Part shown: piece by piece, positions 3,853-14,391 of the stretch | Layout: every line of letters begins with the position of its first letter | How positions within the stretch are numbered: the stretch's first letter is position 1 | IMG/VR virus record: IMGVR_UViG_3300043775_000620 | Span: 1-30,913 of that record | Source of the DNA: a virus | Length of the DNA stretch: 30,913 bases | Reading direction: 5' to 3' (one strand) | The notes under the pieces: model-generated | Seen by the model: the letters and a program-made list of their open reading frames with translations, nothing else | Told to the model about the DNA's origin: nothing | Database searches by the model: none | Position numbers and translations under genes: made by a program

Positions 3853-4382
3853 TTTAATTCTTTTATTTTTTGTTTATAGATTGCAATAAGTTCTTTTACT
3901 TCATCTACGCTTAATTTAAGAGGTTTGTGTCGTATTTCTAATAGTTCGCTATATTCTTTATCACTTATAACATTTTGAAGTCTTAAATCGTATTCTTTTA
4001 CGTTTCCGTGTTTATGTAGGTTACATTCTACGCATTGACCATGTACGTTATTTTCATTAAATCGTAAGTTAGGATATGCTCCAACAGAAAAGAAATGCCC
4101 AGCGTGAAAAGTTTTACCTAAATTTTTACCACAAGAAATACAAGGTTTAAGTTTGTCTCTTTGGCGTATGTAAGTGTTAAAAACTTTCTGCAAGATATTT
4201 AAGTAATCAGATTTACTCATTAATTTTATTTTGATTTCTTTTTTTTCTTGCTTCCAATTTTTAGCGTTTTGCTTTTTCATATACTCAACTGCACAAGATG
4301 GACTACAAACTATTTGAGTGCTGTTTTTAGGTGTAAACTTATCTTTACAAACTAAACATTTCCTTTCGTATATTTTAAGCAT
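3849..4382 (-). CDS. ninG: NinG/Rap-family recombination endonuclease
   Basis: N-terminal CxxC...C...C and a C-terminal CISCGK...HAGHFFSVGAYPNLRFNENNVHGQCVECNLHKHGN signature typical of lambda NinG-like proteins. Confidence 0.8.
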   Translation of the reverse strand: MLKIYERKCLVCKDKFTPKNSTQIVCSPSCAVEYMKKQNAKNWKQEKKEIKIKLMSKSDYLNILQKVFNTYIRQRDKLKPCISCGKNLGKTFHAGHFFSVGAYPNLRFNENNVHGQCVECNLHKHGNVKEYDLRLQNVISDKEYSELLEIRHKPLKLSVDEVKELIAIYKQKIKELK

Positions 4383-4719: not shown

Positions 4720-5552
4720 ATAAAATCTATTATTTGTTTAGGTAACCAATCGTGATTATCAACTTGAAAAGTTATATTTTCAAAAGATTGATTTCTTGAA
4801 TATTCGCATTTCGCAATAGTTCTTTCTTCATCTTTTTCAATAAATACAACTGTTTCTGCTTTCTTTAAAACTGAACTACCTACGTGACCTACTGGCTTTG
4901 CAGTACCGAAGTTCTTATGTAGTATTCCTGTGCAGTGCATTTTACCTTTCGCAGTCCATTGTAATAGTTTTTCAGTAAGTCCTGTTGATTGTTCTAAACT
5001 ATTAAAATCAGTTACTAAATCAACATAACCATCTATTGACATTAAACCTATTTTATTTTTAAAATCGCTTTCAAATACAATCCAATCTATAAAATCAAAT
5101 CTTTCTTTTGGACTATAAGCACGCAAACTAAAAGTTTTATAAAGTTCATAATTAGCACCCACCAATTCTAAAACACGTCTTTGTACTCTTTGAGTATGAT
5201 ATTGTGATTGTTCAGTATCAAATGAAATTACAAACTTGTCTGTTGAGTCGTGTCCTTGAATACTTGGATTATAAATATTTGATTTTCCACCAATGTAACC
5301 AGCTTCAATCATTGATTTAAAGAAAGTCTTTTTTGATTTTGAAGCACCTACAATACAACTAAAGTCACCATAAGAACCAAAAGGAATAGGATATTCTACG
5401 CCTTTATAATTTGAACTACCTATACTAATTGCTATTGGTTGCGGTTTAAGTTCTTCGCTTGGGTCTATTAATGAGTTATTAAGCATTTCTTTAAAGTCAA
5501 TACTTAAAGGTTCATTAATGTTTTTTTCTAATTCGTCAAAGTTTAAATTCAT
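4716..5552 (-). CDS. RecA/DnaB-like P-loop ATPase (putative replicative helicase or helicase loader)
   Basis: Walker A GASKSKKT, catalytic-Glu motif FDTEQS, Walker B LMSIDGY, then HKN and GHVGSS motifs as in DnaB C-terminal/AAA_25-type ATPases. Confidence 0.6.
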   Translation of the reverse strand: MNLNFDELEKNINEPLSIDFKEMLNNSLIDPSEELKPQPIAISIGSSNYKGVEYPIPFGSYGDFSCIVGASKSKKTFFKSMIEAGYIGGKSNIYNPSIQGHDSTDKFVISFDTEQSQYHTQRVQRRVLELVGANYELYKTFSLRAYSPKERFDFIDWIVFESDFKNKIGLMSIDGYVDLVTDFNSLEQSTGLTEKLLQWTAKGKMHCTGILHKNFGTAKPVGHVGSSVLKKAETVVFIEKDEERTIAKCEYSRNQSFENITFQVDNHDWLPKQIIDFI

Positions 5553-6862: not shown

Positions 6863-7150
6863 CTAAAATGGTAAATCTGAAACATCAGGAATATCATTTG
6901 CTTGCACTGGTTCTTCTATTGCAGTTGATTCTTTAAGATTACCAAAGTAAAATTTATCTTCCTTTTGAGCGCCTTTAAAATTAGATTGAAACGAGGCACA
7001 GTTTCCGTATTTGTCTAATTCATCATTTACCCAAACTCTCACGTTTAAATAAATTTTTCCATTTTCGTTTTTAGTAAATGCTTTGTTTCCAGCCTTTGCC
7101 TGTTCTAATAGTTTTGTGAAGTCAATGCTTCCGTAGTAGCTCGTAGCCAT
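6863..7150 (-). CDS. Small ssDNA-binding-like protein with an SSB-type acidic C-terminal tip
   Basis: The C-terminus ...DIPDVSDLPF mimics the bacterial SSB tip (DDDIPF). The gene is adjacent to ERF and encodes 95 aa. Confidence 0.5.
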   Translation of the reverse strand: MATSYYGSIDFTKLLEQAKAGNKAFTKNENGKIYLNVRVWVNDELDKYGNCASFQSNFKGAQKEDKFYFGNLKESTAIEEPVQANDIPDVSDLPF

Positions 7151-11842: not shown

Positions 11843-11958
11843 TATTTTTTAGTTTTAAAGATTAATATTCCGCATATAATTAATGCGCCTGTCATTACAA
11901 TAAAATTATCGGTACTCATTCCGATAGTTGCAACTGATAAAAAGATAATTGTTTTCAT
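11842..11958 (-). CDS. Small hydrophobic peptide (38 aa), first gene of the leftward early operon
   Basis: Hand translation gives MKTIIFLSVATIGMSTDNFIVMTGALIICGILIFKTKK. Its ATG is 22 nt downstream of the -7 box at 11980..11987, and a TAATG overlap links it to the next gene. Confidence 0.35.
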   Translation of the reverse strand: MKTIIFLSVATIGMSTDNFIVMTGALIICGILIFKTKK

Positions 11959-11979
11959 GTTTTAAATATTTTGATATTG

Positions 11980-11987
11980 CAAATGTA
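11980..11987 (-). promoter_or_regulatory. Leftward early promoter -7 box (TACATTTG)
   Basis: TAnnTTTG match on the minus strand in the divergent intergenic region. Confidence 0.5.
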
Positions 11988-12034
11988 TAATGAAAAAACT
12001 TTATAAAAAATTTTTTTATTAAAAAAGTTATTTA

Positions 12035-12042
12035 TATATTTG
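12035..12042 (+). promoter_or_regulatory. Rightward promoter -7 box (TATATTTG) for the plus-strand island
   Basis: TAnnTTTG match on the plus strand, 22 nt before ATG 12064. Confidence 0.5.
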
Positions 12043-12063
12043 CAGAAATCAAAAATTAATTAT

Positions 12064-12267
12064 ATGAACTATTACAAATTTAAAAGAAGTAACAACGGAA
12101 CTTTGAAATTTATTATTAAAGTAAATCAAAAACACATTTCACCTAATGATGGTTGTGTTTACTATTCTGAAGAAGAAATAAATAATATAAAAGATTTTTT
12201 TGTAGTTGAAAAAATGCGAGTAGTAAAAAATGGTAAAACGTGGATTAATTCTAAAATAAAAAATTAA
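12064..12267 (+). CDS. Hypothetical protein (67 aa)
   Basis: ORF-track frame, with the start moved to ATG 12064 because the TTG at 12040 lies inside the putative -7 box. Confidence 0.55.
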   Translation: MNYYKFKRSNNGTLKFIIKVNQKHISPNDGCVYYSEEEINNIKDFFVVEKMRVVKNGKTWINSKIKN

Positions 12268-12270
12268 TAT

Positions 12271-12462
12271 ATGAAAATAACAACAGAAACAAAAGAGCAA
12301 TTGTACATCACCGAATTTAAAAATTCAGATGTATCTTTAGAACAATTATTTGATGCGTTTAAATCACACCTTGTGGCGTTAACTTGGCATCCTATTACGA
12401 TTCAACAATATATAATAGAATGGTCAAATGAATTAAAAGAAAATAACAATGAAAATAATTGA
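12271..12462 (+). CDS. Small acidic hypothetical protein (63 aa)
   Basis: Intact ORF starting 3 nt after the previous stop. Confidence 0.55.
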   Translation: MKITTETKEQLYITEFKNSDVSLEQLFDAFKSHLVALTWHPITIQQYIIEWSNELKENNNENN

Positions 12463-12562
12463 ATTTTTAAAACAACTATTTTGTAACCACAGATGGACTT
12501 ACAATTACAAAAAGAATTATTACAGATGTAAAGATTGTAAATTTAAAATTAATAAGATATGA
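12449..12562 (+). CDS. Small Cys/His-containing hypothetical protein (37 aa)
   Basis: Hand translation gives MKIIEFLKQLFCNHRWTYNYKKNYYRCKDCKFKINKI (CxH...CxxC). Both ends overlap neighbouring genes. Confidence 0.3.
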   Translation: MKIIEFLKQLFCNHRWTYNYKKNYYRCKDCKFKINKI

Positions 12563-12813
12563 AATATAAAATAATTTTTTTTAGTGCTTTTATAATTGAA
12601 ATATGCTCAACTTTTTACATTAAATATACGGCAGATAATAATATTATCGGTATGGTTGTGTTTGCTTTTATCGGGCCTTTTTTATCTTTGCCATTTATGG
12701 GTTATATGGTAGAAAGTAAAATTTGGAAAGAGAGAATTAAAATTACTTTTTGTATGGCATTGGGATATTCATTTGGGGCATTAATTGTAAACTATATAAT
12801 TAAAATTTTATAA
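12559..12813 (+). CDS. Small integral membrane protein (84 aa, about 3 TM segments)
   Basis: Hydrophobic stretches IIFFSAFIIEICSTFYI, IIGMVVFAFIGPFLSLPFMGYMV and ITFCMALGYSFGALIVNYII. Confidence 0.6.
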   Translation: MKYKIIFFSAFIIEICSTFYIKYTADNNIIGMVVFAFIGPFLSLPFMGYMVESKIWKERIKITFCMALGYSFGALIVNYIIKIL

Positions 12814-12814
12814 G

Positions 12815-13021
12815 ATGAACATATTAGAAAAACTAATTTCAGAAAATGCGAAAAATAAAAATCAATTCGCTAAACTTGTAGGTGAAACACCTCAAACAAT
12901 TAACGCACAGGTAAAGTCAAAGAATCCATTATTACCAGCGTACAATTACGCAAAAATTTTAGGTAAAAAAGAATTGAAAGGAAATGCAAACGGAGTAGAA
13001 ATACATTTGATATTTGGTTAA
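12815..13021 (+). CDS. Small XRE/Cro-like HTH protein (68 aa)
   Basis: KNQFAKLVGETPQTINAQVKS resembles a helix-turn-helix core. Confidence 0.45.
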   Translation: MNILEKLISENAKNKNQFAKLVGETPQTINAQVKSKNPLLPAYNYAKILGKKELKGNANGVEIHLIFG

Positions 13022-13157
13022 CGTTCCCACGCTTGGCGAAGGTGGCGATTTTAACCACGAATGCCAATGCGGAGAACGTAACTTGAATATAGCAGTAAAT
13101 GTCAAGCGGAGTACTGCACCGCCACTTTTGCCAAACGTGTGTTAACCGCTGTTTTTT
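13021..13157 (+). ncRNA. Candidate structured RNA element or leader of unknown class upstream of the RNA ligase
   Basis: Locally GC-rich non-coding stretch. A long irregular hairpin pairs 13021..13037 with 13063..13079. GCAGTA (13092..13097) pairs with TACTGC (13112..13117), interleaved with GCGG (13106..13109) pairing to CCGC (13119..13122). Several mutually exclusive pairings exist, and the element ends in a T6 run. Confidence 0.35.
13140..13155. repeat. Left arm of the 16-nt inverted repeat bracketing the ligase ORF (TGTTAACCGCTGTTTT)
   Basis: Reverse complement of 14102..14117 at 15 of 16 positions. Confidence 0.9.
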
Positions 13158-13182
13158 ATTAATCAAATTAAAATTTATAAAT

Positions 13183-14103
13183 ATGTTTAAAAAGTATCAA
13201 CATTTAGAAAGATTTGGAACTACAGAAGTTCAAAACATTGAATTAGGAGAATGTTATATATTCCCAAAAATTGACGGAACAAATGCAAGTGTATGGCTTC
13301 ATAACGGAGAAATACAAGCTGGAAGCCGAACACGTCATTTATCACTTGAAAAAGACAATGCTGGATTTTTAGATTGGGTTTTAAAACAAGAAAACTTATT
13401 AAATTATCTAAAAGAAAATCCAACACATAGACTTTTCGGAGAATGGCTTGTCCCACACTCTTTGAAAACTTACAGAAACGATGCTTGGAGAAAGTTTTAT
13501 GTTTTTGAAGTTGTAGAAGATAGATTAGAAAATGAATTGCAACACGAGAGCGATGAAAAATTTAACTATTTGCATTATAACGATTATAAGCCATTATTAG
13601 AGAAATACGAAATTGATTTTATACCGCCTATTGCTGTAATTAGAAATAGTAATTACGAACAAATAGTAAATCAATTAATGAAAAATGATTTTCTTATTGA
13701 AGATGGCAAAGGTTACGGAGAAGGAATTGTCTTAAAAAATTACGATTTTAAAAATAAATATGGTCGTAAAACTTGGGCTAAAATTGTAACAAGTGAGTTT
13801 AAAGAAAAACACGCTAAAGTTATGGGTAGAACAACTATTGAAGGTAAAAAAATGGTTGAAGAACTAATTGCTGAAAAATATGTTACAACTGCTTTTTGCG
13901 AAAAAGAGTTTGCAAAAATTGAAAGCGTTGATGGTTGGAGCAGTAAAATGATACCAAGATTATTGAATGTTATTTACTATGAAATTGTAAAAGAGGAATG
14001 CTGGAATTTTGTTAAAGAAAATCGTAACCCGACTATTAATTTTAAAACGCTTCAACATTTCGTTTTCGCTAAAGTTCGTGAAATATTACCGAACGTCTTT
14101 TAA
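13183..14103 (+). CDS. ATP-dependent RNA ligase, Rnl2-like (covalent nucleotidyltransferase superfamily)
   Basis: Motif I KIDGTN (Lys29), motif III-like LFGEWL, motif IV EGIVLK, motif V-like TWAKIV, and a helical C-terminal domain with no OB-fold-sized extension. Start set at ATG 13183; the track's upstream 28 codons lie in the structured non-coding region. Confidence 0.75.
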   Translation: MFKKYQHLERFGTTEVQNIELGECYIFPKIDGTNASVWLHNGEIQAGSRTRHLSLEKDNAGFLDWVLKQENLLNYLKENPTHRLFGEWLVPHSLKTYRNDAWRKFYVFEVVEDRLENELQHESDEKFNYLHYNDYKPLLEKYEIDFIPPIAVIRNSNYEQIVNQLMKNDFLIEDGKGYGEGIVLKNYDFKNKYGRKTWAKIVTSEFKEKHAKVMGRTTIEGKKMVEELIAEKYVTTAFCEKEFAKIESVDGWSSKMIPRLLNVIYYEIVKEECWNFVKENRNPTINFKTLQHFVFAKVREILPNVF

Positions 14104-14117
14104 AATAGCGGTTAACA
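14102..14117. repeat. Right arm of the 16-nt inverted repeat (AAAATAGCGGTTAACA)
   Basis: Reverse complement of 13140..13155; overlaps the ligase stop codon. Confidence 0.9.
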
Positions 14118-14121
14118 GTCT

Positions 14122-14157
14122 GATTGGCGATGGTTTTAATCTCGCCAATCATTTGTT
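14122..14157 (+). terminator. Hairpin with a T-rich tail downstream of the ligase (candidate terminator or processing hairpin)
   Basis: GATTGGCGA-N11-TCGCCAATC (9 bp) followed by ATTTGTT. The arms are related to the upstream hairpin (TTGGCGA...GCCAAT). Confidence 0.5.
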
Positions 14158-14181
14158 ATAAATTAAATAAATAAATAAATT

Positions 14182-14391
14182 ATGGATAAAACAATTATTA
14201 TAAAATCCTTGCAATGTTATATAACAAGGAAAACGCAAAAGATAAATCGAATTAATAGAATTATTTTAAATGACCCTGGTTGTGAAAATTTACAGAATTT
14301 AAAAAGAGGATTAAGGCATAACAAGGCATTGATAAAAAGAGCTGAACAGCAAATTTTATTCTTTGAGAATTTTGTTTTTAATAAACTATAA
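14182..14391 (+). CDS. Hypothetical basic protein (69 aa)
   Basis: Intact ORF; its 3' end converges on and overlaps 14386..14955 by 6 nt. No family recognised. Confidence 0.45.
   Translation: MDKTIIIKSLQCYITRKTQKINRINRIILNDPGCENLQNLKRGLRHNKALIKRAEQQILFFENFVFNKL

Follow-up and report, generated by a model that had tools for sequence, protein, structure and literature searches.

An Rnl2-like RNA ligase gene, very probably a mobile accessory, in a complete 30,913-bp phage genome

RNA ligases of the Rnl2 family seal nicks in duplex RNA that carry 3'-OH and 5'-PO4 ends, with ribonucleotides required on the 3'-OH side of the nick. The namesake enzyme, T4 Rnl2 (gene rnlB), joins a nucleotidyltransferase (NTase) domain to a four-helix C-terminal domain. 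Here we characterize a gene with the same domain layout in the virus record IMGVR_UViG_3300043775_000620, a complete genome, 30,913 bp long and bounded by direct terminal repeats of 127 bp, which was analysed over its whole length and is called the window below. The gene lies at positions 13183-14103 on the plus strand. Our joint reading, towards which the evidence leans slightly, is that it encodes an Rnl2-like ligase, travels as a mobile accessory cassette and seals RNA whose ends are already ligatable. The result is mainly a firm annotation, that of an ordinary accessory RNA ligase gene and not of a new system.

Ligase genes of this type are already known, and close homologues are annotated as RNA ligases in isolated phages. 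The nearest cultured homologue, gp003 of Cellulophaga phage phi19:3 (YP_008240788, 'RNA ligase family protein'), is 72% identical over its full length, equally long, likewise stand-alone and assigned to the same PHROG. Phage phi19:3, a member of the Pachyviridae, differs from the window phage in its 76-kb genome, in the neighbours of the gene and in having no GC-rich hairpin beside it; its ligase gene is flanked instead by AATTAATGTTAAC direct repeats. A more distant point of comparison is the 'deviant' Rnl2 of Diplonema papillatum (DpRNL), in which motif V reads K-x-V (PMC4599027). Compared through its published description and not by direct alignment, DpRNL resembles the window ligase in this motif, but it is eukaryotic and its C-terminal region is much shorter (203 aa). 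The Rnl5 ligases, Deinococcus DraRnl and Naegleria NgrRnl, share with the window ligase the PF09414 NTase fold and, in motif I, Asp as the third residue. In Rnl5 an OB-like module lies at the N-terminus and the helical C-terminal domain is missing, whereas the window ligase has its motif I lysine, Lys29, near the N-terminus and an extra domain that is C-terminal and helical.

Motifs, domain architecture and ligase class

The plus-strand frame at 13183-14103 translates into 306 aa followed by a stop codon. An ATG at 13099 stands in the same frame and would give a product of 334 aa; because the homologues all begin with MFKKYQ or MEFKKYQ, and because 13099 falls within the upstream hairpin, we place the start at 13183. 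The protein matches PF09414 (RNA_ligase) over residues 25-202, scoring 64.1 bits where 27 would suffice (E = 2.3e-17), and a six-frame search of the genome with the same family returned 65.4 bits. The profile phrog_548 ('RNA ligase') matches over the full length (E = 4e-49), and the Pfam scan of the protein found, besides PF09414, only a chance-level match to RNR_N. A search of the PDB with the single ligase sequence gave no meaningful match and a profile was needed: the profile of 61 homologues has T4 Rnl2 as its sole PDB match (E = 4.5e-4). Alignment with hhalign to the T4 Rnl2 sequence from the T4 record reaches E = 4e-6 over 274 columns and pairs residues 1-301 of the ligase with residues 1-321 of T4 Rnl2, covering both domains.

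Structure prediction yields the same best match. The full-length AlphaFold2 model, with a mean predicted local distance difference test (pLDDT) score of 83, consists of an alpha/beta NTase domain, a disordered linker (residues 206-221) and four C-terminal helices, in agreement with the claim of a preliminary description, made from the sequence alone, that the protein has no domain of OB-fold size. In Foldseek searches of the PDB the model ranks full-length T4 Rnl2 first (the 2HVQ/2HVR/1S68 enzyme; E = 7e-13, 343 columns, both domains). Rnl3 (approximately 5e-9), T4 Rnl1 (2e-7) and TbREL1 (5e-7) rank lower, and Naegleria Rnl5 (approximately 3e-8 to 4e-8) aligns through the NTase domain only, over 228 columns with a root-mean-square deviation (rmsd) of approximately 4.2 Å. 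Among models of viral proteins, the best matches are phage and giant-virus proteins named RNA ligase 2. The NTase (adenylyltransferase) domain spans residues 1-205 (13183-13797), mostly with pLDDT above 85, and matches the N-terminal domain of T4 Rnl2 (1S68) in Foldseek at E = 8e-10.

The all-helical C-terminal domain, residues 222-306 (13846-14100), is assigned to the Rnl2 type from a model of the domain alone and from hhalign, which places it on T4 Rnl2 residues 255-321. When the C-terminal 88 residues were folded in isolation from an alignment of 21 phage homologues, AlphaFold2 again produced four helices, with a pLDDT of 94. The best PDB match of this isolated domain is the C-terminal domain of T4 Rnl2, at a template modelling (TM) score of 0.60-0.61 and an rmsd of 3.2 Å over 79 columns, a match that is not significant alone (E = 2.5-5.8); every other PDB match has a TM score of at most 0.41.

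The conserved motifs follow in canonical order and are invariant or nearly so, and translation places KIDGTN (Lys29), LFGEWL, EGIVLK and TWAKIV exactly where the preliminary description had read them in its 306-aa open reading frame (ORF). Motif I, KIDGTN (13267-13284), contains the predicted AMP-accepting Lys29 and aligns with K35-IHGTN of T4 Rnl2. Motif III, LFGEWL (13432-13449, beginning at Leu84), corresponds to VFGEF, with Glu87 at the position of Glu99; motif IIIa, FYVFE (13495-13509), corresponds to FYVFD, with Phe108/Glu109 at the positions of Phe119/Asp120. Motif IV, EGIVLK (13720-13737), aligns with EGYVLK, so that Glu180 and Lys185 match Glu204 and Lys209, and in motif V, TWAKIV (13771-13788, beginning at Thr197), hhalign sets Lys200 against Lys225. 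Among the 61 homologues, Lys29, Glu87, Glu180 and Lys200 are invariant, as is the whole of KIDGTN; the homologue alignment likewise holds G86, E87, W88 and L89 of motif III and E180, G181, V183 and K185 of motif IV invariant, while the Glu109 position of motif IIIa is Asp in most homologues.

Compared with T4 Rnl2, the window ligase thus keeps K-x-x-G-T-N of motif I, motifs III, IIIa and IV and the first lysine of motif V, together with Tyr5 (Tyr5 in both) and Arg49 of motif Ia (Arg55 in T4), and the N-termini are nearly identical (MFKKYQHLE in the window, MFKKYSSLE in T4). Overall identity is approximately 16-23%, and the window ligase has 306 aa against 334 aa. Among the aligned positions that differ, Asp31 stands for His37 of T4, Val202 takes the place of Lys227, and in the C-terminal domain Phe/Leu is found opposite Arg266. 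Motif V therefore has one lysine and not two, and both Val202 and Asp31 are family-wide. DpRNL has Val where T4 Rnl2 and TbREL1 have the second basic residue of motif V, which in those two enzymes touches the phosphates of ATP, and the T4 Rnl2 substitution K227Q alters the adenylyl-transfer step (PMC4599027). Given this effect and the K-x-V motif of the window ligase, its kinetics, substrate or chemical detail may differ from those of T4 Rnl2.

That the ORF encodes an Rnl2-like ligase can be held with high confidence. The preliminary description had placed it in the Rnl2/PF09414 type as opposed to DNA ligases or capping enzymes, and the first rank of T4 Rnl2 in Foldseek and the hhalign score uphold that placement; no capping enzyme appears among the top 50 Foldseek matches in the PDB. 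It is highly unlikely that the protein functions as a DNA ligase, although the UniRef name of the phi19:3 homologue is 'DNA ligase', one metagenomic phage record calls it 'ATP-dependent DNA ligase', and the Asp in KIDG is found in DNA ligases as well. The model has a helical C-terminal domain in place of an OB fold, PF01068 matches neither the protein nor the window genome in six frames, DNA ligases come well behind the RNA ligases in Foldseek (E of at least 1.8e-6), and the GTN signature and MFKKY N-terminus are Rnl2-like. Neither is the protein an Rnl1, Rnl3 or Rnl5. Membership of Rnl5 was rejected since the motif I lysine at residue 29 leaves no room for an N-terminal module, TIGR02306 (Rnl5) does not match and the Foldseek alignment is confined to the NTase domain; for Rnl3 (Pab1020-type) and Rnl1 (T4 RnlA), the NCBIfam models TIGR01209 and TIGR02308 are without a match and the Foldseek values fall behind that of Rnl2. 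No named NCBIfam family was found for the ligase.

The assignment to the Rnl2 type holds for the architecture and the best match but not at the level of the equivalog. TIGR02307, the Rnl2 equivalog, does not match the ligase at E <= 10, whereas T4 Rnl2, run as a control, reaches 467 bits with the cut-off at 197, and in a maximum-likelihood tree the T4 Rnl2 branch exceeds nine changes per site, a very distant outgroup. Because of these two results and the deviations in motifs I and V, we file the protein as Rnl2-like: judged by its sequence, it is a separate subfamily with Rnl2 architecture and not an Rnl2 orthologue.

Several homologues depart from this plan. Inteins with LAGLIDADG or HNH homing endonucleases occur in P0137, P0131, P0203, P0205, P0264 and P0129, with canonical junctions (Cys...His-Asn/Cys-or-Ser), at four sites in or beside catalytic motifs: after KIDG (motif I), GEWL (motif III), GEG and IKNY (motif IV). 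One homologue carries its intein after KIDG and three after GEWL. Inteins in motifs I, III and IV appear to mark constrained active sites of the family, and we consider them worth recording, along with the motif I and V deviations and the mobility of the cassette. Two single fusions with weak scores, in P0209 and P0140, give weak hints of RNA or nucleotide partners; one joins a YqeY-like N-terminal domain to the ligase (PDB 8xjg, E = 1e-3), the other adds a C-terminal P-loop NMP-kinase-like domain (guanylate-kinase-like, E of approximately 0.01). A few copies are possibly decaying: the ligase at L031:2191-3090, in a provirus record (G020), appears frameshifted, with the conserved C-terminus ...KVKQHLPQVF in another frame; at L015:5304-6224 the motif V lysine has become Glu (WAEIV); and at L017:295-1161 the protein diverges past residue 258.

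A ligase cassette in a hypervariable slot

Genes in the window run almost entirely on the minus strand, and the ligase gene stands in a small plus-strand island at 12040-14391. A search that started from the spanin-like gene next to the ligase retrieved sister phages that share this backbone. On both sides of the slot their nucleotide identity to the window is 85-96%, yet none of the five records, two of them complete genomes, contains the ligase. Conversely, the segment 13126-14116 is 85-94% identical in nucleotide sequence in eight other phage contigs that otherwise have almost nothing in common with the window. The left edge of this cassette falls at 13126-13140 and the right edge at the right arm of an inverted repeat (14102-14116); in the ligase-less sister L043, backbone homology resumes at 14105, and among phages with the cassette conservation does not extend into the 297 nucleotides downstream of the ligase.

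The slot itself extends from 13021 to 14181, between a small helix-turn-helix-like gene (12815-13021) and a gene for a 69-aa protein (14182-14391), and its cargo is hypervariable in the sister phages: two small CxxC ORFs (L043:4840-5410), five small ORFs (L044:4772-6660), or an orphan N6/N4 DNA methylase with small ORFs (L048:305-2360). From the ligase-less sisters and the presence of the cassette in unrelated backbones it follows that the ligase is a single-gene cassette that is traded between phages and dispensable, and the preliminary description had already called it an accessory; we regard its status as a mobile accessory cassette as very well supported.

The ligase family is large. At 90% clustering it holds more than 4,600 proteins at E <= 1e-5, and at 50% clustering 1,408 at E <= 0.001 and 420 at E <= 1e-30. 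The closest matches in genome assemblies are a Flavobacterium metagenome-assembled genome (MAG) at 90%, a Flavobacteriia MAG at 87% and a Cytophagales MAG at 82%, and parts of the window phage backbone resemble Flavobacterium phages; on both grounds the host of the window phage is probably a flavobacterium.

Substrate and possible role

The window genome encodes a terminase, a portal protein, a capsid protease, Erf, NinG, two DNA methylases, a PolB-type exonuclease-like protein and an endolysin. PHROG scans of 40 ORFs and a Pfam scan of 38 ORFs (E <= 0.01) turned up no kinase, phosphatase, HD, RtcB or 2H protein, six-frame searches with AAA_33 and with the kinase-HD protein of a relative found nothing, and no tRNA or tmRNA genes were found in the window. 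The genome thus lacks the pairing of kinase and 2',3'-phosphoesterase by which a T4-type healing-and-sealing system would be recognized, and the absence of kinase/phosphatase, RtcB and 2H partners proposed in the preliminary description is borne out. A survey of 21 ligase-bearing phage records, among which 11 are at least 90% complete, showed that this stand-alone state, correctly noted for the window phage, is no peculiarity of it but the rule across the family: the ligase stands alone in 10 of the 11 complete relatives, and AAA_33 and HD domains occur in one of the 21 records (L030).

In that record the ligase, 53% identical to that of the window, abuts the ORF of a 307-aa kinase-HD protein, which is followed by a 273-aa protein. 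The trio of ligase, kinase-HD protein and a third gene with a weak match to RlaP (PF10127) recurs in seven of approximately 79 loci (L030, L062, L063, L070, L071, L073 and L075), and neither the kinase-HD nor the PF10127 gene is present beside the ligase in the window. Clusters of ligase, healing and RlaP genes are already a known class of repair cluster (bioRxiv 10.64898/2025.12.29.696909). The trio resembles the ligase/HD-Pnk cluster of Runella slithyformis (PMC6097658) in that the ligase ORF abuts or overlaps that of the healing enzyme, but within the trio enzyme the kinase domain precedes the HD domain, opposite to the order in Runella HD-Pnk. Ligases of these cassettes are 53-57% identical to the window ligase, contain all motifs and fall in the tree into separate, mostly Firmicutes-associated clades. 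The link of the window ligase to RNA repair would accordingly run through homology across clades and not be direct.

Because the genome encodes no end-healing enzyme, the substrates would be expected to possess 3'-OH and 5'-phosphate ends already, and we judge it reasonably probable that the ligase acts on RNA with such ligatable ends. By analogy with the family, Lys29 would be adenylylated by ATP and the AMP passed to the 5'-phosphate at the break; attack by the 3'-OH would then seal it, with the helical domain clamping the duplex. Suitable substrates would be nicks in structured RNA, such as tRNA stems; ends of this kind are left by metal-dependent Toprim, PIN or HNH nucleases of the host, and the ligase would then be an accessory for RNA repair or counter-defence. 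Published work shows that cleavage by the Toprim nuclease P2-OLD yields 5'-P/3'-OH ends and that T4 Rnl1 or Rnl2, without prior healing, can reseal a tRNA with a single nick in its anticodon stem (PMC12445682). As the ends left by P2-OLD are directly ligatable, counter-defence against metal-dependent RNA nickases is mechanistically reasonable; such a role is plausible and would fit a hypervariable accessory slot, and that the purpose of the gene is to counter host RNA-nicking defences may be put forward tentatively.

An alternative is that the ligase works in the T4 manner after all, on ends prepared by a kinase and phosphatase of the host. The classical and established role of a phage RNA ligase is in partnership with Pnkp (cited in PMC12445682), and family members from other clades carry a kinase-HD enzyme of their own. 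Against this, healing enzymes are missing from the window and from all but one of the 11 complete relatives, and the explanation rests on a presumed host Pnkp. Rnl2-type enzymes moreover prefer duplex nicks, while breaks in loops are handled by Rnl1. We consider borrowed healing improbable.

The principal competitor, which we think unlikely though less so than borrowed healing, is that the ligase acts on nucleic-acid hybrids in phage DNA replication, recombination or repair, where it would seal nicks with ribonucleotides at the end of the 3'-OH side, as the Rnl5 enzyme DraRnl does, and has no part in the repair of host or phage RNA. The surroundings of the gene in relatives favour it, with DnaB, DnaC-like, ThyX, NinG and methylase genes among the neighbours, and PF01068 DNA ligases are absent from all 21 ligase-bearing phage records. 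DraRnl seals nicks with at least two 3' ribonucleotides and contributes to radiation resistance (PMC5397189). However, two complete sister phages have the same replication module and no ligase, the architecture is that of Rnl2 and not of Rnl5, with no N-terminal domain and Lys29 near the N-terminus, and sister clades tie the family to kinase-HD/RlaP genes of RNA repair. Counted over loci, the neighbours of ligase homologues, other than those of the trio, are HNH (seven), DnaB and C5 methylase (five each) and ThyX and NinG (three each), and no further neighbour family recurs above expectation for phage early regions.

Several observations weigh against a role of the window ligase in sealing ligatable RNA. 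Besides its distance from T4 Rnl2 set out above, namely the failure of TIGR02307 to match, the very long T4 branch and a motif V without the second lysine in the hhalign alignment, T4 Rnl2 itself has no known biological role. In the tree the window ligase groups, with strong support, among 32 Bacteroidota-type sequences, and the kinase-HD cassette accompanies not one of them, and the genes beside the ligase in relatives often belong to DNA metabolism (DnaB, ThyX, NinG and methylases). Furthermore, the ligase-like protein of the Runella cluster self-adenylylates, yet no sealing was seen with any standard 3'-OH/5'-P substrate that was tried (PMC6097658).

A wider and more doubtful proposition is that stand-alone Rnl2-like ligases provide a general, healing-independent counter-defence by resealing tRNA or structured RNA nicked by metal-dependent immune nucleases; the candidates, named with the same reserve, would be nucleases of the OLD/PARIS-type Toprim, PIN/VapC and HNH/PtuAB types. 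If true, this would explain why single-gene ligase cassettes move through hypervariable slots and would assign the Rnl2 architecture its first biological role. The family, being large, mostly stand-alone and traded between phages, is well suited to asking whether sealing alone defeats metal-dependent tRNA-nicking defences.

Flanking hairpins, repeats and signals

Immediately upstream of the ligase, at 13016-13157 on the plus strand, lies a long GC-rich hairpin, folded from the element at 13016-13147 and followed by T6 (-50.6 kcal/mol, z = -3.65), which belongs to the context and not to the enzyme. Its basal stem GGTTAAC/GTTAACC is continued by approximately 20 further pairs and a variable top of approximately 70 nucleotides. 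Copies of approximately 135 nucleotides, with the same outer arms (GTTA...TAAC ends), compensating changes in the inner stem and differing tops of approximately 85 nucleotides, are present at L007:750-880, L008:5837-5965 and 6920-7050, L009:5850-5960 and 6925-7020, L016:5828-5965 and L036:5853-5985, and in several phages of flavobacterial type such hairpins border cassettes of accessory genes.

The ligase gene is also bracketed by a 15-nt inverted repeat, with a left arm GTTAACCGCTGTTTT at 13141-13155 and a right arm AAAATAGCGGTTAAC at 14102-14116 that overlaps the stop codon, both read on the plus strand. Within one genome the repeat is not significant (for a 10-mer with one mismatch, three matches against 1.2 expected), and it seems meaningful only through comparison across relatives, where its pairing persists through four variants that co-vary, GTTAACCGCT, GTTAGCCGCT, GTTACCTGCT and GTTACC(A/G)CTC, all with a constant G opposite T that would form a G-U pair in plus-strand RNA.

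The preliminary description had suggested that the ligase might act on this adjacent structured RNA. Such an action, which could also extend to its own transcript, might for instance circularize or re-join an RNA set by the hairpins or the repeat. The pairing of the 15-nt 5' and 3' flanks, kept with its G-U through the four variants, speaks for such an activity, as do the long hairpins on both sides of the ligase in L008 and L009, where a second hairpin follows downstream. Yet in L036 (record G001) the same hairpin and right-hand repeat enclose three unrelated small ORFs, with no ligase seen in its 50.5-kb record, which is approximately 46% complete. Most ligase homologues, including those of phi19:3, L003, L011-L013, L015 and all distant clades, have no such hairpin. 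In addition, the arms of the repeat look like the ends of boundary hairpins, the right arm resembling the first bases of another hairpin copy, and co-variation can arise from the element alone. An action of the ligase on this RNA is consequently not supported and very improbable, and the hairpins are read as repeated boundary or terminator-like elements of the variable region. An integron-like reading, prompted by the GTTA...TAAC ends and the conserved structure with variable sequence, was rejected, since the genome has no tyrosine recombinase and the cargo in L036 is different.

Downstream of the ligase, a small GC hairpin, GATTGGCGA...TCGCCAATC, with a T-rich tail occupies 14122-14159 on the plus strand. 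It is conserved in the ligase-less L043 and is likely a backbone terminator, although a simple terminator scan did not call it. No Rfam family passes its gathering threshold anywhere in the window, the hairpin region giving chance-level matches (E > 1), and scans for sigma-70 promoters and terminators around the ligase are at or below shuffle expectation. TAnnTTTG, the -7 box of Bacteroidetes promoters, shows no enrichment across the genome (73 occurrences against 60 expected).

A TACATTTG box is found at 13002-13009, 7 nucleotides before the base of the upstream hairpin, and is not conserved in relatives. Both this box and divergent TACATTTG (minus strand) and TATATTTG (plus strand) boxes in the intergenic region 11850-12040 (at 11980-12042) resemble the Bacteroidetes -7 element. 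In phi19:3 (L001) the direct copies that flank the ligase gene, at approximately 3975-3995 and 4975-5000, have the form AATTAATGTTAAC(yy)TTAATAAA, so that in this distant phage, too, a boundary or regulatory motif that contains GTTAAC surrounds the gene.

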